From an uncultured Methanomicrobiales archaeon (GTDB lineage Archaea; Halobacteriota; Methanomicrobia; Methanomicrobiales; Methanospirillaceae), in NCBI GenBank assembly GCA_963697895.1, contig OY969100.1, positions 800,001 to 864,000 on the forward strand: a DNA stretch of 64,000 bases. The letters are read 5' to 3'. The notes below the pieces were generated by a model, which was not told where the DNA came from, searched no databases, and saw only the letters and a list, made by a program, of their open reading frames with translations. Positions 10,551-46,179 of this stretch are shown piece after piece. Numbering within the stretch: position 1 is the stretch's first letter; every line of letters begins with the position of its first letter. A program made the position numbers and the translations under genes.

Positions 10551-13023
10551 CTACCCCAAGCCAAACTGCGCGAGCGTTGTCCGTGAGGGGTCGATGTCAC
10601 TCCAATCCCAGCCGAGCGACTCGATGATCCGGGAGATCGGTTGTTTCAATGTTTTTTCGAGCATCATCTCCCAGTCTATCATAAATTCCGGAGGAACCTG
10701 GTCTCCGTACTCGAAACAGAGCACGTCCGTCCTCGGATATTTGGATGTGACATGTTTTACATAGACCCGTTTTGGTTTGCTTCCCTTGGAAAATTCCATA
10801 CCAAGATGCTCGTTTGCATAACGGGCTCCACGAACATGTGCCTCATCCGTCTGGTAGTCCCCCAGGTGTTTCCCAAAACCTCCGGGTATTCCGATTTCGT
10901 CAAGGGGGTACCGGCCGTTCCGGTAGTTCCTGATCACCTCGCGAAGATACTCCCGGATCGCATCGTAGTTCTCACCACGGAGGATCATCTCGATAATCCG
11001 CTGTTGCACCTGTTTGGTGATCAGAGGATAGTCACTTCTCCGAATTTCAAATCCAACAACATCGATCTCGTCAGCCTCCTTGCCTTCCTTCCAGATGAGA
11101 TGCCCGGCATACCGTTTCTTTTTCCCTGCCTGGAAGAACCGGCCGTACACTTTCTCAAACTTGATCGAGAAGAAATGCCGTTCTGCATTCAGTTCACGGC
11201 GTGCGAAATCTCCGTAACTATCGTTCACGGCCTGTTCGATCCTTCGGGCGATGACGATGACTTCCGACAGGTCCCCCGGTGGGAGAACAACCATGCATGA
11301 ATCGGTATCCCCATAGATGACGTGAAATCCCTGTTCTTCAATAACCCTGCGGGTGTGTTCGATGATTGCCCGCCCTATCGAAGTGATGGCCGAACCAATC
11401 TCCCGGTCATAAAGGCGGAACCGTGCGTACCCGGAAACTCCATAATAAGTGTTCATGATCACCTTCAGCACATTCTGCTGGGTGTCATATATTTGGTAAG
11501 CGGAGGATCCGAATGGGTACTCGATCTCTTTTTTGTTTTCTCCGGTCCCGTTCTTTCAGGAGTTCGCTGATGATGCTCCTCGTCAGTCCATCTGGCGACT
11601 TTCTGAACCGGATACCATTCGGTGCCTTCAATTCACCCAGCGGGTCTTTCACCTCGGGTGACGCATTCACGGTCATCATCGCCATCGGGTAGAGCGATTT
11701 GAGATCCAGCACAACCACATTCTCTTTTACACCCCGGGTCGGATCAAAGACAGTTGCTCCCTCGAATTCTTCGCCGGTGACAAATCCCTTGGAGGGGAGG
11801 ACAAATCTCCCGTGTGCTTTCCGGAGGATATAGATATCGATCACGTTTGATGAATTGAGGGTACGATCGAGCGGGCAGCCGACATAGCGTGCAATTTCCC
11901 GGTAAAACTCGATGATCCTGTTTTTATTGTTTATCCCGACGCAGAGCTCGACATCCTTGAAATTATATTCGACGAGGAGTCCCTTGTCCTCACGCCAGAG
12001 GTCGCTGATGCGGCCCTTGTACCGCACCTTTGTGTCACCCAGCTCCGCATCTGCCACCGCATCGAGGCGATAAGATTCCCGCTGGGTTGCATGCATCTTT
12101 TTGTATGCAGGCAGCAGATCGAAGATCACCCTTCCGCGGATTGCGTTCCGTTCAGTCTGGCCCTCGAGCCGGGAGAGACTGGTTGCAGAGAGCCCGAGGA
12201 CCTCCATCCGCTTCATAATATACGGAATATCAAATTCAAGGATATTCCACCCCGAGAATATATCAGGGTCCTGACTTCGGATGTACCCGGCGAGATCTTT
12301 CAGGAGTACCGTTTCGTTGCAGAATATTCTTACTTTATGGGTGGCGTCGCAAAAACAGCCGTTTTTTAGACCTCCTTCCGCAAACAAAGCTGAAAAATCT
12401 TCTTCATTTTCCTCGCTGTCAAGGAGGAAACTGGTATAGATACCATCAAATGAATCCCAGCAGGTAACACAGATGATTTTATCACGTTCCGGGTCTGGGA
12501 ATCCCCGCTCATCCTCGCACTCTATATCCAGAAAACAGAGGCGTGCGGGTGCATTCACTTCAGCCCCGGCAGACTCGCGGTAATCCGAGGGGTTTCCGTT
12601 TGTAGTCACCCCTCCGGTAAGACCGGTATCTATCATGAAACGGGTTGCGAATGGAATATCTGCCTCATAGTGAGGATTGTACCGATCACGGACATCCCTG
12701 ACATCGGTTGGTCTCCGGGTATACAACCTCCTCAATGGTTCACCCCGAATGGAGCTGTACTCGCGGCTGGTATCCACCGTCACCTGTTCAGGGAGTCCCA
12801 CACCGTCCACCTGACTGACCGGGGCGTAGAAATAAGGCCGAAATCCTGTCACTTCCAGGTGAACCGCCTGGCCCGATTCACGGCGCCCGAATACGTGAAT
12901 AACAGGCCCGAAGGAGGTGTTGGTGTATTCCACCTGAAAGATGCCGATCTTCAGCTCCTGGAAAGATGTTAATGTGCAGATTGTGACAGGTTCCGCAGTT
13001 TGTGGTACTGATTTTTCCATCAT
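10551..13023 (-). CDS. polB: Family B DNA polymerase (replicative/repair type), interrupted by one +1 frameshift near 11520
   Basis: ExoI FLDIEC, ExoII GWN...FD, ExoIII YNFKD and motif A DLKSLYP in ORF 11485-13179; motif B KVIMNTYYG, motif C YGDTDS, KKRY and C-terminal PIP-like TTLAQF in ORF 10551-11471. Confidence 0.9.
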
Positions 13024-13030
13024 AAATCTA

Positions 13031-13897
13031 TCAGATATTGATCTCCTCACAGAGTTGCCGGATAAAGGAACCGGCCTCGGCAAATTTCCTGCTTTCCCAG
13101 GGATCCAAGGACCATTCGGGAATTTCATGGATGCCACCTCTCCCGACTCTGGCTGGTACCCCAACGGAACACTGGTCAAGTCCGTACTGTCCTTCGAGGA
13201 TGCATGAACAGCTGATTAAGGACCGGGAATCCCGGGCAATCATATCGATCAGGCTGGATATATGGAATCCCGGGCCAAATACCGTGCCCCCTTTCCCCCG
13301 GATAACTTCCATGCTCGAACTCCTGAGCCCCTGAAGGATCTCTTCGCGGATTTCTTCGGTCACCGGCACGGGGAGGCGTGAAAAGAGCGGTACCTGGTGT
13401 TCACCATGTTCCCCGATGACGCATGCGTTCCCGTGAATATTTCGTTCCCTGATCGCAAGTCCAAACCGGGCACTATCCAGTTGTCCGCCAAATCCGATAC
13501 ACCGGGAAGGTTCAAGCCCGGCTTTCCGATGAAGGTAATAGTTATTCGGGTCCATAGGATTGGTCACCGTGATGAGTACCCCGCCAAACCCGTGGAGAAG
13601 ACCGCTACATTCGGATGCTACGGGCAGATTTGCATCAAGCAGATCGGCCCGTGTTTTAACGGCAGGATTTCGAGGCAATCCTGCCGAAAAGACGCAGATA
13701 TCGGAATTTTTTACGGAGTGTACATCCGTGCTGATGGGAATATCGATACCGGTGTGCCGGAGGTCGAGCACCTGTGATTTCAGGAGGGGGGAATAGACAT
13801 CATACAGAATGATCTCATCCACGGAGCCCATGAGGGATGAGAGAAATGCTACCTCACCTCCAACTTTCCCCACGCCCAGCACCGAGAGGGTTGTCAT
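13031..13897 (-). CDS. mdh: Malate/lactate dehydrogenase family protein
   Basis: GVGKVG Rossmann motif, SAGLPR...TRADLL..N, VTNPMD, LDSAR, IGEHGE. Confidence 0.85.
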   Translation of the reverse strand: MTTLSVLGVGKVGGEVAFLSSLMGSVDEIILYDVYSPLLKSQVLDLRHTGIDIPISTDVHSVKNSDICVFSAGLPRNPAVKTRADLLDANLPVASECSGLLHGFGGVLITVTNPMDPNNYYLHRKAGLEPSRCIGFGGQLDSARFGLAIRERNIHGNACVIGEHGEHQVPLFSRLPVPVTEEIREEILQGLRSSSMEVIRGKGGTVFGPGFHISSLIDMIARDSRSLISCSCILEGQYGLDQCSVGVPARVGRGGIHEIPEWSLDPWESRKFAEAGSFIRQLCEEINI

Positions 13898-35241: not shown

Positions 35242-35799
35242 ATGATCCTTGTCGACTGGCAGATCCTCGATCGCATCGGAAGAGGGTTTATCAAAATTGA
35301 ACCGTTTGACCCCGAACTCGTCCAGCCTAATTCACTCGATATCAGGCTTGGCAACCACTTCGTCTGGTATCAGGTAGGAGACGAGGTGATCGACCCCTAT
35401 CATAAGGACACGGTGAGCTCAGGGACCTCCGATCTCCATGCGGATTCGGTAGTGCTCGAACCTGGACAGTTTGTCCTTGCCGAGACTCTAGAAAGAATAG
35501 AGCTGCCGGACAATGTGGTCGCAAGCATTGAGGGGAAGAGCAGTATCGCCCGTCTGGGAATAGAGCTTCACCAGACCGGGGGGTGGATAGATGCGGGCTT
35601 TCGGGGAAGCATCACATTAGAGATGTGTAATGTAAACCAGCGCCCGGTCCGCATGTATGCGGGGATGCCTATCGGGCAGCTGGTCTTCTATACCACCGAA
35701 CGGGCAATGCGCCCTTATAATATGAAAAAAGATGCCAAATACATGGATCAACGCCAGGCAACCCTTTCCCGGTACCATGAAAACCGGAGAAGGAGCTGA
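35242..35799 (+). CDS. dcd: dCTP deaminase
   Basis: [38 protein letters not shown]. Confidence 0.92.
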
Positions 35800-40869: not shown

Positions 40870-41334
40870 TTACCTCCTCCGGTATGTCCCCATCAGAAGG
40901 CCGGTCGCAAGTACATGCCCCTTCATTGCCCGCTCGAGGCTTTCCCTGTCTCCAGGAGCTGGAATAAGTTTTAACGAGAGTGCATACAGCCGGAAGTAAT
41001 AACGGTGCGGTTTACCGCGGGGCGGGCAGGGGCCTCCGTACCCTGGTCGCCGGAAGTCGTTCATCCCCTGCACGCCCCCGTCATCCAGCGTCCCCTGCGC
41101 CGGAACCCCATCGGGAAGGGTTGTCCGGTCCGGTGCCATGTTGCAGATGACCCAGTGGGTGAATGTCCCGGTCGGGTCGTCCGGGTCATCCATGATCAAT
41201 GCAAGGCTCTTCGTCCCCGACGGAACTCCCCTCCAGGATAATGCGGGAGAACGGTTTGCACCATCACAGGTGTGCGAGACCGGTATCTCTTCTCCCGGGC
41301 GGAACGCATCAGTTGTAATCATAAGATCTGTCAA
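40870..41334 (-). CDS. YbhB/YbcL (PEBP/Raf-kinase-inhibitor-like) protein
   Basis: TCDGANRSP, ALIMDDPD, FTHWV, GYGGPCPP, HRYYFRLYAL; probable TTG start after GGTGAG. Confidence 0.88.
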   Translation of the reverse strand: MTDLMITTDAFRPGEEIPVSHTCDGANRSPALSWRGVPSGTKSLALIMDDPDDPTGTFTHWVICNMAPDRTTLPDGVPAQGTLDDGGVQGMNDFRRPGYGGPCPPRGKPHRYYFRLYALSLKLIPAPGDRESLERAMKGHVLATGLLMGTYRRR

Positions 41335-41381
41335 TTGCTCACCACCCCATCCGGTACCCTGTTCATGGACTGGATTCCTGT

Positions 41382-43415
41382 TCAGGTCCACAGAATTCCG
41401 GTAACGGTACAGGATAATTCCCTCTCATGCGATAAAAGTTCCCGGGTCGGTTGCCTCTTCCCGGGCAGTGCATCCCCGAACGCAAATAAGATCTCGGCCC
41501 ATGCTTTGTCGAGGAGTGCCCGGTAATAGGCCGGATCAAACCCTGTTGCGTTCCATTCCAGATCCACCTCCCAGCGTCGGGCGTCCCTGACCACGTACCC
41601 GATCTCCATACCCGGGGAGACCTGTATGCCTGCCGCAGCGCATGCCGTTACGGCAGATGCCTCCGCACACCGGTGCGCATAGGTGATCCGGCTGACCTGG
41701 CGATGAATGGCCAACTCACGTGCTTCGGCTTTCGGAAGACCGGCAACTGCTTCCCGGTAGATCGCCTTCACTGCGGATTCCCTGGCGATCAGCGAGTCCC
41801 TGTCCATCGTACCCCGCAACTTTTCCAGCATCGCATGCTGCATCTTCCCGATATAGTCCGGCGTGTCCCGCTTCCGTGCCATGATCCCCCGTACCTTGAT
41901 GGTGTCATCCGCCAGAAGACCGTAGTACCGGTTATATGCACCAAACCCGTCCGGCATCGGGAGAAAGACGATCCAGCGGTAATCTTCAAGCTCGGTGGGG
42001 AGCCCGGTCTCTGCCTCGACTCTTGCCTTCAGCTCCCGGGTGGGACCCCCGCGGACCCAGAGGCAGTCCACGATGCCGTGGATCACTTCAAAACCCATAT
42101 TCTCGGCGATTCCCTTGGTAGTGAGGAGAATGTCCCGTGATTTTCCGGTGATCTGTTCATGGACTTCGATCCTCCCGAATTTGGCATTTTTATACCCCGT
42201 ATACCCGAAACAGGTGACCAGCATCCACTTGAGTATCGAATCCACACCAGCATACTGCGGGTCTGACTTCTTCCGCTGCTTGGTCTCCAGCCGCAGACGG
42301 AGCAGGGGACCAAGCACCGAAGGGAGGAAGCCCTGCCTTCCCAGGCCGCCAAGGGTCTCCGGAGAGAGATTATAACGGACGATGACCGCAGGGTAGAGCG
42401 AGGTGAAGTCGATCTGGCAGACATCCTCATAGAGTCCGGGAACCGGCTGGAACATCATTCCCCCCCGATCTGCCCCCCGTAATTCCGCAAACTGCCGGAT
42501 ACACTCGGGGTCTGCCTTCCGGTACGGGATGGCGATGCCGCAGCGTATCGCCTCGTACACCTCATAGGTGGAGATCAGGGTGCCGGAGGTGAACCGTGCG
42601 GTGAGATTGGGGGAGAGCCCGGTAAGCCGGGACGCAAGGAGCACCCCGGCGAGCCCTCCCTCACGGTAGTTGAAACTCTGGCGGGTATCTATCAGCACCC
42701 GGCCGTCCGGGATCAGGGCTCCCGGGCGGAATTCAGTCCTCCCGTAACTCCAGAAGGAGTGTGCATCGAGCTTCCGGAACACCCCGGTCCGGCTGATGGT
42801 GGATTCGAGCCCGAATTCCTGTGCACGATTCAGGATCCGGGGCAACCAGGTATCAGCCAGCGGGAAGAGGATGATATCAGGGTCATATGAGTCCACGAGA
42901 CCGAAAAGATCAGAGAGAATTGCCTTTTCGGTCCCTTGCAACCGTTCTTTCCGCTCGTGCGTCACGTCGATGCACGAACATGCGGTGCCCGTGTGCGGGT
43001 TGTCGCGGACTGCAACCTCCATGCAGGTCAGGGGGACCTCGAATTGGACGGAAAATCGTGATTCTGATGGTTCGCCGCAGGGGAAAAGGTTCCGCTCGGC
43101 GAAATACCGCTGGTCGAGCCTGACGTCGACGTTGTACAACTGAGCGCGATACCCGGACTGCTTCTCAATCAGGTCAGCCTCCGGTCTTCCAGCCTCTATC
43201 CGGTACCCGTCATGCGTGCCGTATACCGTGCGGAACGTGCATTCCTCCACGCGATACCGTTCCGAAAGCGCTTCCACGAGCTGCCAGTGAGCGTGGGGAT
43301 CGGGAAGGTGCAGATAAAACGATGGCTCATAGGGAATGCGGTGCCGGCTCATCCCATCTGAGCGGTCCCAGTATTCAACGCTGCCCCGGCGGTAGCATGA
43401 ATCAAGGATCCACAC
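41382..43415 (-). CDS. PolB2/Dpo2-group family B DNA polymerase (degenerate exonuclease)
   Basis: MWILD start, SYG, ADRGG, motif A DFTSLYP, motif [13 protein letters not shown], motif C HGIVDC, NRYYG, KVRGI. Confidence 0.9.
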
Positions 43416-43641
43416 GGAGTCGACGCTCCTGCTCCTTCAGCAGCTCAATGAGCACCGAGTAAAAGACCGCCTCGAGCGGGTCGTCAAAGGCAGAGAATGC
43501 CTCGCTCGAATGCCGCTTCGCCATGGAAACGAGGTCGCGGAGATAGAGTTCATCTTCCCGCTTCACGAAATGCGCCTCCCGGAGCCACCGTTCAGTAATT
43601 TCTTTCACTCCCATCCTGACGCTGATGAAGCTTCTTCCCAT
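43402..43641 (-). CDS. Small helical PolB2-associated protein (arCOG07300-like)
   Basis: MGRSF.SVR...D...L..L...AKRHS......DPLE....S.LIEL; overlaps both neighbours. Confidence 0.78.
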   Translation of the reverse strand: MGRSFISVRMGVKEITERWLREAHFVKREDELYLRDLVSMAKRHSSEAFSAFDDPLEAVFYSVLIELLKEQERRLRVDP

Positions 43642-44162
43642 CAGAACCCCTCCAGAGTCGTCTGTTCCCGCGGTCGATCCGAGACGGACAGACGACGGGC
43701 AGGGTGGCGCATGCGCTGAAGGGGTACGGACGGCGGGGCGAAATAAAAGATCCGGTCTGCCCGCCGTGCCAGCGTACGGAAGGAATCGTCTTCATGGGGT
43801 GCATAGAGGATCACAAGGGTGTTCTCCCCTGCATCATGCAGCGCCTCTGCGACTGGATCAAGCACCTCTGTCGCACCTTCGTACAGGGAGGGATCGTGCT
43901 CCACAAAGACGACCGTATGGTGTGAATCCTGAAGGATACTGATGAGCTGATACGCCGTGAATGCCCGCTGAACCTCAAAATTCGTTGATCTGCGGTTGAT
44001 CGCCGGGAGCAGGTGCGAAAAGTTCCCGCAGACGTAGAGGAACAGGAACCGCTGGATCCCCGGGTTGTCGTTCAGACCCGCGGCCGCAAGTGCCTCCGGC
44101 GCGATCAGGGCATTGAACGTCCCGGTCTGCATGGCAATGGACGGGTACAGATCGAACTCCAT
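43641..44162 (-). CDS. PolB2-associated protein, probable inactivated RecA/RadA-fold, with C-terminal PIP-box-like motif
   Basis: FEVQRAFTAYQLISIL (RecA-fold-like), VVFVEHD (degenerate Walker B), no Walker A; ends QTTLEGF; TGATG coupling. Confidence 0.72.
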   Translation of the reverse strand: MEFDLYPSIAMQTGTFNALIAPEALAAAGLNDNPGIQRFLFLYVCGNFSHLLPAINRRSTNFEVQRAFTAYQLISILQDSHHTVVFVEHDPSLYEGATEVLDPVAEALHDAGENTLVILYAPHEDDSFRTLARRADRIFYFAPPSVPLQRMRHPARRLSVSDRPREQTTLEGF

Positions 44163-44456
44163 GTATACCCGTCGCCCCCGGCCACCCATAATGGTCAGGA
44201 ACATGCGGGGTGAAAGTGCGTGCCAGGGACAGAGCGCCGGCACCTCCATTCATCTCGGTAAGCTGGAGATATGTTCCAGGTGCCTTCTATACGGGTTCTG
44301 GGGCCGTTCCTGTTGCGGCAGCTGTTCAGGTTCTTCCGGTGGAACTGGTTCCCCGCGCTCGCGTGCAGGGATTTAGCTGTTTACTCTGATAATTTTCTCC
44401 TTTTTGAGTCAGGCAGGCGTATAGATAGCAGTTCAGATTTGACCAGACATTGAATC

Positions 44457-45935
44457 CTAGGAATATTGCCTGCCATCCAACCACCGGCAACCGGTGATCA
44501 CGGCCAGGTCCTTTGTCAGGCAGACCACGTCGTCGGAGTCCAGGTCCGTTATTCTCTGTTTACCGACGATCCGTGTGAAACCTGCCATTTCTTCTGCCGA
44601 TAACCTGATAAAACGGGATAATCGTTCGGTCCCGTCTTCGATCTTCAATTGCTGCATGAGGACAGGATCCTGTGTGGTGATACCGGTCGGGCAGAGGCCC
44701 GTATGGCAGATCCGGTACTGCTCACAATTCATCGCGATAAGAGCTGCAGTTCCGATATAGACCGAGTCAGCCCCCAAAGCGATACATTTGGCGAAGTCGG
44801 CGGAGCTCCGGAGACCCCCGCCCGCAATGAGTGACACCCGGTCCCGTTCTCCGCTCTCACTCAGGAACCGGTGTGCCCGTGGGAGCGCAGCGATGAGAGG
44901 AAGTCCGACATTTTCTCTGATATAGGCATAGGTTGCGCCGGTACCGCCCCCGAACCCGTCTATTGCGATAAAATCAACTCCTGCCTCGACCAGGATACGG
45001 CAGTCATCTTCGATGCGGCCGCACCCGATCTTGGCACCGATCGGGACCCCCCCCGTGATTTCCCGGAGCCACTCAACCTTCTCCTGTATCTGGGCCGGTG
45101 ATACCATATCCGGGTGATGAGCCGGAGAGTTCGCATCTTCCCCGGGCTCAAGCCCCCGTATAGATGCGACCTCAGGAGTGATCTTTGCGGCAGGTAGGTA
45201 ACTTCCCTTTCCCGGATAAGCACCCTGGCCGAAACGAATTTCGACCGCCGCGGCCCGTTTCAGAATTTCTTCAGAAATACCAAACCTGCCGGTGGAATAC
45301 TGGCAGATGCACCAGGATGCAGCGGTATTGAGTACCTCCGGCAGTACCCCTCCCTCCCCGGTGTTGAATGCGATGCCAAGCATTGCAGCTACCCGGGAGA
45401 TAATCTGATGGACATTCCGGGATGTCGCACCGAAACTCATTCCTGATATCAGTATCGGGGAGGTCACCCGAAGCGGCCTTTTTGAGGAGGGGCCGATTAT
45501 CGCTGCATTATCAACTCCCTCTTCCCTGTTCAACGGTATCCGTTCGACCTGTGCCGGGATGAAATGCAGGTCATCGAACGAGAACGGGATCTTCTTGCAG
45601 GAACCCATCGCAACCACGGTACTCTCGCCCCGCAGCGCCTCCTCCTTCATTCTGACTATTGATCGATAGAATGATTCGTCTTCCCTGTTTTTTTGTTTTC
45701 TCATGACGATGCCGCCAGCTCCGCCAATCTCCATCTTATCGCAAAAATAGAGCTTTTCAAGCCTGTATTCACGATGTACCGGGCACGCAGTGCAGATACA
45801 TCCGCTCGCACTGATATCGCAATGGCTGTGACCGATGGCACAGAATGCAGTGGTGGTTTCGCATCCACGCGCATAGGTCGGGCATTTGGGGCATATGCAT
45901 CGTTCCCGGTTTTCGGGTGAATCATCGACCTTCAT
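44457..45935 (-). CDS. FMN-dependent glutamate-synthase-like protein with N-terminal Cys-rich DUF2769-like domain
   Basis: SGMSFGA, NTGEGG, QYSTGRFG, GQGAYPG, SPAHHPD, IDGFGGGTGA, GGLR, CEQYRICHTGLCPTG. Confidence 0.85.
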   Translation of the reverse strand: MKVDDSPENRERCICPKCPTYARGCETTTAFCAIGHSHCDISASGCICTACPVHREYRLEKLYFCDKMEIGGAGGIVMRKQKNREDESFYRSIVRMKEEALRGESTVVAMGSCKKIPFSFDDLHFIPAQVERIPLNREEGVDNAAIIGPSSKRPLRVTSPILISGMSFGATSRNVHQIISRVAAMLGIAFNTGEGGVLPEVLNTAASWCICQYSTGRFGISEEILKRAAAVEIRFGQGAYPGKGSYLPAAKITPEVASIRGLEPGEDANSPAHHPDMVSPAQIQEKVEWLREITGGVPIGAKIGCGRIEDDCRILVEAGVDFIAIDGFGGGTGATYAYIRENVGLPLIAALPRAHRFLSESGERDRVSLIAGGGLRSSADFAKCIALGADSVYIGTAALIAMNCEQYRICHTGLCPTGITTQDPVLMQQLKIEDGTERLSRFIRLSAEEMAGFTRIVGKQRITDLDSDDVVCLTKDLAVITGCRWLDGRQYS

Positions 45936-46179
45936 CGGGACCCCCCCTGTCTGGGGAAGCCGCGTAACTGCGGGTGTCCGGTTCCAAACCTGCGCTCGCT
46001 CCATATGCCACATGATATTCCATATCCGGTCTTTTAGCCCGCACTTCTATAAGAAAAAGTCGGTTCATGGTAGAATTCCCCGAAGCGATCAGGATACGAC
46101 GGTATGGGAAACAGTTATCTCTGGATTTGCGACTGAGAGCAGAATATCTGCCGATACAAGACAAGGGATAACAGGGCAT

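Follow-up and report, generated by a model that had tools for sequence, protein, structure and literature searches.

Family B DNA polymerases of the PolB2 type were first described together with the genes of an arCOG07300 protein and an inactivated RadA (iRadA) by Makarova, Krupovic and Koonin in 2014 (PMC4104785), and in 2025 the system was modelled by Timinskas, Timinskas and Venclovas as a PolB2–iRadA–(PPB2)3 'mutasome' (PMC11791011). Here, we describe a three-gene unit on the minus strand of a 64,000-nucleotide (nt) stretch of DNA (the window, in which all positions are counted unless stated otherwise) from an uncultured Methanomicrobiales archaeon of the Methanospirillaceae (GCA_963697895.1, contig OY969100.1, 800,001–864,000). 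The unit is very probably a conserved archaeal PolB2 operon with the gene order iRadA–PPB2–PolB2, and the C-terminal tail of its first protein resembles the PIP box (PCNA-interacting peptide) by which client proteins bind the sliding clamp PCNA.

According to PMC11791011, PCNA motifs are commoner on iRadA than on PolB2 and are rarely found on both, and contacts between iRadA and PCNA were modelled; its Discussion presents this as the first clamp motif in a recombinase homolog. PPB2 is described there as a three-helix fold with an 'MGRT' arm and the residues Arg3 and Arg9, the order iRadA–PPB2–PolB2 is one of several and the only one given for bacteria, and motif C of the Sulfolobus islandicus PolB2 reads I-I-D. 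That enzyme, Dpo2, is a robust polymerase without exonuclease activity, which inserts accurately and extends mismatched or lesion-paired primer ends (PMC8764526); it is damage-inducible, and the genes for iRadA and PPB2 adjoin its own (PMC8764526, PMC7390963). A parallel is drawn in PMC11791011 to Escherichia coli Pol V (UmuD'2C–RecA), which likewise combines a translesion polymerase, a RecA-family protein, a small subunit with an N-terminal arm to the active site and the sliding clamp, whereas Pol V has a Y-family catalytic subunit, an active RecA and its clamp motif on UmuC. No methanogen is named in the main text of PMC11791011, and the literature searched, by titles and abstract starts, showed no later experimental test and no methanogen study of the system.

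The features of the unit are as follows.

41382..43415, minus strand: PolB2-type family B DNA polymerase, 677 amino acids, GTG start; matches NF004416 and Pfam DNA_pol_B
43402..43641, minus strand: PPB2, small helical subunit of the arCOG07300 type, 79 amino acids; assigned from homologs and a model
43641..44162, minus strand: iRadA, inactivated RadA/Rad51-like protein, 173 amino acids; no Pfam or NCBIfam match
43665..43718, minus strand: Arg/Pro-rich disordered linker of iRadA, residues 149–166; predicted local distance difference test score (pLDDT) below 50, variable alignment columns
43644..43664, minus strand: C-terminal PIP-box-like motif QTTLEGF of iRadA, residues 167–173; from conservation, proteome scan and docking
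42390..42413, minus strand: motif A of PolB2, IDFTSLYP, residues 335–342; from alignment, catalytic Asp336 kept
42204..42230, minus strand: altered motif B of PolB2, KWMLVTCFG, residues 396–404; aligned to KVIMNTYYG of PolB3
42063..42080, minus strand: altered motif C of PolB2, HGIVDC, residues 446–451; aligned to Pyrococcus PolB and PolB3
42837..42869, minus strand: ExoII remnant of PolB2, residues 183–193; aligned to Pyrococcus PolB and PolB3
44163..44456, minus strand: upstream intergenic region, presumed promoter of the three-gene unit; 294-nt gap

The three proteins and the conservation of their operon

The three open reading frames (ORFs) are co-directional, and each overlaps the next: the iRadA stop and the PPB2 start share one base (TGATG, an overlap of 1 nt), and the GTG start of PolB2 lies 14 nt ahead of the PPB2 stop (an overlap of 14 nt). 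The GTG start is supported by the NF004416 profile, which aligns from residue 1. The longest frame for iRadA (43641..44249) has 202 amino acids, and a Met at 44162 gives the 173-residue protein; the latter start is the most likely one since iRadA homologs are mostly 172–176 amino acids long and begin with MEFDL or MRIEL.

Homologs of iRadA, mostly from Methanomicrobiales, number 245 at E<=0.001 among 480 candidates; 120 of them were listed, and 61 of these were aligned with the window protein to give an alignment of 62 sequences. The protein matches no family in Pfam or NCBIfam, and its profile found nothing significant among PDB chain sequences (the best hit, at E 0.011, is a designed repeat protein, followed by weak ABC ATPases), so that the fold had to come from structure. 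An AlphaFold2 model built on the 62-sequence alignment (pLDDT 83.3) has a confident alpha/beta core at residues 1–148 and a tail at 149–171 with pLDDT below 50. In an exhaustive structural comparison, in which all matches lie over residues 1–152, this model resembles RecA (3cmu; Z 12.3, root-mean-square deviation 3.7, 150 residues aligned), DMC1 (Z 12.1, root-mean-square deviation 2.9, 141 aligned), a RAD51 paralog (Z 12.1), yeast Rad51 (Z 11.8), Psy3–Csm2 (Z 10.7) and RadB (Z 9.9), and most of the chains that Foldseek found (E 1e-5 to 6e-4) belong to RAD51 paralogs, RecA or Rad51, interspersed with thymidine kinases. A Walker A motif (G-x4-G-K-[ST]) is absent from the protein and from all 120 listed homologs, and the window's iRadA contains no lysine at all. 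The predicted structure is thus a RadA/Rad51 fold of core length only (173 amino acids), without the N-terminal domain and without ATPase residues, and identifies the first gene as the iRadA of the literature.

PPB2 begins with MGRSFISVR and is predicted to form three helices (pLDDT 87.7). Among the 74 homologs found, MGRS occurs in 68, always together with Arg at position 9, and it starts at residue 1 in 64 of these; in 36 aligned sequences M1, G2, R3, S4 and R9 are invariant. The second gene therefore has the three helices, the MGR[ST] arm and the Arg9 reported for PPB2. Neither Pfam nor NCBIfam has a match to it. Many homologs carry a precomputed PF26485 tag, but a Pfam scan of three of these and of the window protein gave no significant match. 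A fold search with the model returned unspecific helical matches (best Z 5.9), with an ECF sigma factor at rank 42 (Z 4.8), which says nothing for or against the likeness to sigma factors reported in PMC11791011.

The polymerase scores 881.8 bits over residues 1–654 against the NCBIfam model NF004416, 'type B DNA-directed DNA polymerase' (cut-off 516), and matches Pfam DNA_pol_B as well as Pyrococcus PolB structures at E 2e-27. Its motifs were compared with those of Pyrococcus PolB and of the PolB3 pieces found in the same window, and conservation was taken from 62 PolB2 sequences, that of the window and 61 related ORFs. Motif A (IDFTSLYP) aligns with L-D-F/Y-x-x-L-Y-P-S of Pyrococcus PolB and LDLKSLYP of PolB3, retains Asp336 and is conserved across the related ORFs. 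Motif B is changed from K-x3-N-T/S-x-Y-G to K-W-M-L-V-T-C-F-G, with the loss of N and Y, and in motif C (HGIVDC, compared with Y-I-D-T-D-G in Pyrococcus PolB and YGDTDS in PolB3) the first Asp is replaced by Ile448 and the second, D450, is retained. Both altered motifs are conserved to at least 90% in the 62 sequences, HGiVDCLWV being kept in relatives. In ExoII, N..FD has become L..W-gap/L, so that N-x3-F-D has lost both its N and its catalytic D (compared with YNGDSFDFPY in Pyrococcus PolB and GWNILEFDIPY in PolB3). With I448-V-D450 in place of D-x-D and ExoII lost, the protein shows the features that set the PolB2 group apart. The conserved pair D316-R317 lies about where the D(K/R) motif of PMC11791011 would fall and is a candidate for it. 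In the control genome of Sulfolobus acidocaldarius, the match to NF004416 stays below the cut-off, which indicates that the methanogen and Sulfolobus PolB2 proteins are distant subfamilies.

An earlier reading of this DNA made without database searches (the sequence-only reading) had described three overlapping or coupled genes, the three polymerase motifs quoted above, a first gene that lacks Walker A and ends in QTTLEGF, and a RecA-like fold for its product; the first three are there as described, and the fold is borne out by the predicted structure. It had also claimed the loss of both exonuclease motifs, which the alignment confirms for ExoII, whereas for ExoI, which lies outside the alignments of both programs (these begin at about residue 144–161), we infer the loss.

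The unit is widespread among relatives. Species-representative genomes were scanned with the iRadA alignment, which found 153 relatives, and 80 loci were kept, in which genes were called by tblastn; all are Methanomicrobiales-type metagenome-assembled genomes, except two labelled Methanobacteriota and one Methanosarcinales. iRadA was detected in 80/80, PPB2 in 76/80 and PolB2 in 74/80 loci, some contigs being cut. All three genes are present in 73 of the 80, and 72 of these 73 have the order and strand seen in the window. A malic-enzyme gene lies downstream of the cassette in 24/80 loci, which suggests a stable chromosomal site. Of 101 genomes sampled from the class, 62 have a PolB2 above the cut-off of NF004416 and 69 a match to the iRadA profile. 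Judged from these sequences, the cassette is a common and chromosomally stable feature of the lineage.

Two of the related frames depart from this layout. At one locus (L021, 5001–5471 onward), the iRadA frame reads through to a PPB2-like C-terminus (...LKAREGRHVDH), and at G038:C1:2212480-2214696 the frame with the iRadA match is 764 amino acids long and open throughout the stretch covered, with the PolB2 match just downstream also lying in a 764-residue open frame. These are either gene fusions, a kind reported in PMC11791011, or frameshift artefacts.

Compared with the published mutasome operon, the locus has the same three gene families, a polymerase with a substituted first Asp in D-x-D and without the exonuclease site, an iRadA without the N-terminal domain and ATPase residues, a PPB2 with the MGR[ST] arm and Arg9, and a PCNA-type motif at the C-terminal end of iRadA, with none on PolB2. 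It differs in belonging to the Methanomicrobiales, a lineage within which the aromatic residue of the motif is often missing, and in having no orc1/cdc6 gene nearby. To S. islandicus Dpo2, the methanogen PolB2 is alike in being a family B enzyme with an I-x-D motif C, with no exonuclease (no activity in the former, no ExoII site in the latter) and with adjoining iRadA and PPB2 genes; the difference is that Dpo2 was shown to be active, to be an extender and to be damage-inducible (PMC8764526, PMC7390963), whereas the methanogen protein is known here from its sequence.

The C-terminal tail of iRadA as a predicted PCNA handle

iRadA ends in QTTLEGF (residues 167–173), a terminal Q-x-x-[LIMV]-x-x-[FWY] on a flexible segment. 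Q167 and L170 do not vary across the 62 aligned iRadA sequences, at least 90% of which also have E171, and the Arg/Pro-rich linker before these residues is variable and gapped; the tail is read as a short linear motif because its conserved residues follow a variable disordered linker. Q-x-x-[LIMV]-[EDG] is found close to the C-terminus in each of the 120 listed homologs, 87 of which end 6–7 residues past the Q. Among the related loci, the iRadA frame was missed by the pattern in 4/80 (L027, L039, L051 and L065), and in the 76 with a located frame the tail is Q-x-T-L-E-like in 72 and lacks the motif in four (L007, L021, L067 and L074).

The polymerase carries nothing comparable. Its conservation ends at about residue 645, and the ~30 residues that follow vary and show no PIP-like motif; among 62 complete related PolB2 ORFs none has an aromatic PIP motif in the last 30 residues, while a relaxed pattern is found in 2/62.

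How selective the motif is can be judged from a scan of 1957 non-overlapping ORFs of at least 100 amino acids (606,531 residues) from the same genome. The loose pattern Q..[LIMV]..[FWY] occurs in the last 14 residues of 28 ORFs, eight of which, picked by eye, were annotated. Seven of these eight are replication or repair proteins, namely an RFC-large-like AAA+ protein (its RFC1-type lid domain, at 34.1 bits, is just below the cut-off of 34.9), Fen1, Nre, a Hel308-like helicase, PolD DP2, RNase HII and a Y-family polymerase; the remaining one is an enzyme of the glutamine amidotransferase/phosphoribosyltransferase type. Four matches to the strict pattern Q-x-T-[LI]-[DE]-x-[FWY] occur in the whole ORF set, all in the last 10 residues, where about 0.05 would be expected by position: QATLDGF (RFC-large-like), QKTLDAWF (Fen1), QMTLDRF (Nre) and QTTLEGF (iRadA). 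Nre (Pfam Nre_N and Nre_C), with its terminal QMTLDRF, is encoded outside the window at G000:C1:1577648-1578808 on the minus strand. iRadA thus resembles PIP-box clients such as Fen1, the RFC large subunit, Nre, PolD DP2 and RNase HII in its C-terminal Q-x-x-L-x-x-F after a flexible linker, and differs from them in being a recombinase homolog; for proteins of this class, the first report of a clamp motif dates from 2025 (PMC11791011).

Docking points in the same direction. The organism's PCNA (G000:C1:578612-579352; 30-row alignment) was modelled with iRadA residues 139–173 and with three controls; the iRadA tail reached a median score of 0.67 and the controls 0.00–0.02 (best of three, 0.02). 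The mark applied is one reached by 58/80 solved complexes as against 2/110 mismatched pairs. At least 78% of the contacts recur from run to run, with a pLDDT of at least 45 for the iRadA partner, and the interface sets iRadA 163–173 against PCNA residues 39, 42–46, 120–125, 221–222 and 239–246, which we take to be the canonical PIP pocket, the interdomain loop and the C-terminal strand. From this model, together with the conservation and the scan, the tail is probably a working PCNA handle in this organism.

The proposed complex and its alternatives

We hypothesize that iRadA, PPB2 and PolB2 assemble into one translesion-synthesis polymerase complex, as their homology and the published model suggest. 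PolB2 would be the catalytic subunit, without proofreading and with an I-V-D variant of the active site, and would probably extend mismatched or lesion-paired primer ends by analogy with S. islandicus Dpo2. One N-terminal arm of PPB2 (MGRS...R9) may insert between PolB2 and iRadA, and iRadA would act as an ATPase-dead RecA-fold adaptor carrying the clamp handle, that is, the flexible Arg/Pro-rich linker and QTTLEGF, whose predicted docking site is the PIP pocket of PCNA. Since PolB2 is without a PIP motif, it would be the accessory iRadA that recruits PolB2 to PCNA at stalled primer ends. The whole, a PolB2 operon with the iRadA tail as its PCNA handle, we regard as likely.

Much of this had been anticipated by the sequence-only reading. 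Its statement that the polymerase tail lacks a PIP motif agrees with the window protein and its relatives, and its proposal of a complex with PCNA is supported by the docking, in silico. The tethering of the polymerase by an accessory RecA-fold protein likewise finds in silico support, but it is not new, being already set out in PMC11791011. The description of a mutagenic non-proofreading polymerase has to be qualified by what is reported of S. islandicus Dpo2, an accurate inserter that extends mismatched or lesion-paired primer ends (PMC8764526). The system is a known one, and no new question is opened by it because the operon and the placement of the motif have both been published. We propose that the locus is a clean methanogen example for the recently proposed model in which the link between an archaeal translesion polymerase and the sliding clamp would be a recombinase relic instead of the polymerase itself. 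The organism, or cultured members of its family, would be convenient for testing that model because the strict motif is limited to three types of PCNA client and iRadA.

A number of observations weigh against the proposal. An aromatic residue stands at motif position 7 in only 53 of the 120 listed iRadA homologs (Ser in 38, Ile in 13, and in 9 the protein ends before it), which means that the family-wide constraint is Q-x-T-L-E and not the canonical PIP box; of the QxxLxxF ending, whose conservation in orthologs the sequence-only reading had named as a check, the Q and L are kept throughout and the aromatic residue in those 53. In one well-sampled genus, of which five complete or near-complete genomes were compared, the iRadA tails of four read QRTLEVL, QKTLEVS, QKTLEVT and QKTLEV (the fifth has no stop in the stretch covered), while in the same five genomes Fen1 ends in QKTLES[WF]F and the RFC-large-like protein in QSTLFDGF, both with their aromatics. 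The pairing of PIP boxes with PCNA is a textbook one with many solved structures, so that the docking result may mirror likeness to these, and in at least one run the pLDDT of the iRadA partner is below 50. On the polymerase side, motif C has lost its first Asp and motif B is largely altered, so that the case for activity rests on the analogy with Dpo2. As for the genomic context, no promoter, operator or damage-response promoter was identified in 44163..44456, where promoter analysis was not completed; an alignment of upstream regions was unsuitable because the relatives are too distant (<=59% protein identity). orc1/cdc6 genes are reported to be enriched near polB2, but none is found among the 27 ORFs at 27–59 kb of the window (Pfam, E<=1e-5; two ORFs without a Pfam match), nor do these ORFs include a lexA-like, SRAP or DUF72 neighbour at the same threshold, and no regulator was identified. 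Finally, a second translesion route exists, as the genome encodes a Y-family polymerase with a PIP-like tail of its own.

This Y-family polymerase (Pfam IMS, IMS_C and IMS_HHH), with QKTISEF near its C-terminus, lies outside the window at G000:C1:370935-372026 on the plus strand. A split between an inserter (the Y-family polymerase) and an extender (PolB2) is possible by analogy with what has been discussed for Sulfolobus Dpo4 and Dpo2.

The deviations of the tail could also mean that the PolB2 complex forms while Q-x-T-L-E binds another partner (for example a PolB2/PPB2 groove or a replisome protein such as RPA), in which case its similarity to a PIP box in this species would be incidental or vestigial. 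The residues kept throughout the family are Q, T, L and E; E171 is not a PIP-box requirement, and the aromatic anchor that a canonical PIP box needs is lacking throughout one genus, where Fen1 and the RFC-large-like protein retain theirs. Yet the strict motif occurs in this genome only at the C-termini of the RFC-large-like protein, Fen1, Nre and iRadA, the docking places the tail in the canonical pocket while the controls stay near zero, and PMC11791011 has confident PCNA–iRadA models for other species; we hold this alternative to be unlikely. The tail as a PCNA handle remains our preferred reading for this organism, which belongs to the subset with the full motif. For the Methanomicrobiales as a whole, it is conceivable, though doubtful, that the tail is a weakened clamp handle whose aromatic residue is kept or dropped lineage by lineage, tuning the competition of an error-prone polymerase for PCNA, or that Q-x-T-L-E has a second partner; lineages that have dropped the aromatic have QxTLEV[S/T/L] tails on iRadA and full PIP boxes on Fen1 and the RFC-large-like protein. 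Neither possibility is addressed in the sections of PMC11791011 on the operon and the motifs or in its Discussion, and the paper says that weak motifs may have been missed in its survey. A different objection concerns the polymerase, which might be catalytically dead and part of a complex with a non-synthetic role at stalled forks or origins (regulation or fork protection). With Ile for the first Asp of motif C, no N and Y in motif B and the exonuclease motifs gone, PolB2 would fit the inactivation and the regulatory or repair role that PMC4104785 proposed when the operon was first described. However, S. islandicus Dpo2 shares the I-x-D motif (PMC11791011) and is nevertheless a robust polymerase (PMC8764526). 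The altered motifs B and C are conserved as is expected of a working site, and the Asp of motif A and the second Asp of motif C are retained. We therefore keep PolB2 as the probable catalytic subunit and consider its inactivity quite improbable.

Bacterial ImuABC is a three-gene damage-tolerance cassette whose clamp motif is on the Y-family-like ImuB, and not on the RecA-like ImuA or the polymerase. The sequence-only reading had called the present cassette ImuABC-like, and the two do have in common three genes, a RecA-fold protein without ATPase motifs, a non-proofreading polymerase and a clamp motif on an accessory protein. Taken as homology to ImuA–ImuB–DnaE2, this likeness is hardly credible: the polymerase belongs to family B and not to the C-family of DnaE2, the middle gene encodes a 79-residue three-helix protein without a Pfam match and not a Y-family protein (the Y-family polymerase sits elsewhere in the genome), the clamp motif is on the RecA-like protein, and the RecA fold of ImuA and iRadA is the one relationship between the two sets of protein families. 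In addition, the main text of PMC11791011 never uses ImuA or ImuB and draws its parallel to Pol V. Homology is refuted by these family assignments, and the comparison stands only as an analogy of roles.

Gene neighbourhood and other observations in the window

The genes that flank the cassette are housekeeping genes, coding for a PEBP-family protein, a malic enzyme, a protein with a glutamate-synthase domain and rRNA methyltransferases, and the G+C content is flat (0.57–0.61 in 500-base windows over 41000–44499). Upstream, the 294-nt gap separates the stop of the glutamate-synthase-domain gene (44457..46013) from the iRadA start. The PEBP and glutamate-synthase-domain genes were considered as parts of the unit and rejected, each adjoining the cassette in 0/80 related loci. 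The PEBP-family gene (40870..41391, minus strand) has its longest start 10 nt inside the end of PolB2, with a Pfam match only from residue 36, and its absence beside the cassette in all 80 loci makes it probably unrelated to the operon.

The window also contains a replicative-type PolB3 (10551–13179, minus strand), which is split into ORFs of 564 and 306 amino acids, the second of which starts exactly at motif B. The sequence-only reading had taken 10551..11471 for a polB gene with TTLAQF at its end; the ending RTTLAQFGLG is there, and the presumed gene is the C-terminal piece of the frameshifted PolB3. The frameshift lies near 11520–11530, inside the A-rich run AAAACAAAAAAG (coding strand), beyond which the expected ...YDTQQNVLKVIMNTYYG is read in the +1 frame. 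At 11520–11524, the contigs of 4/4 covering public metagenome runs have one letter fewer, which would restore one frame, and relatives have single open frames of about 800–930 amino acids. Most likely, a homopolymer error in the assembly or a frameshift of very recent date accounts for the split. Other homopolymer indels may be present in the genome, since its completeness is 93.85% for a single contig.

A further PIP-like sequence was found in the window by the loose scan, in a dCTP deaminase (35242..35799, plus strand; Pfam DCD) with Q-x-T-L-x-x-Y placed 9 residues from the C-terminus. This motif could be due to chance, or it could be a clamp link for an enzyme of the dNTP pool.

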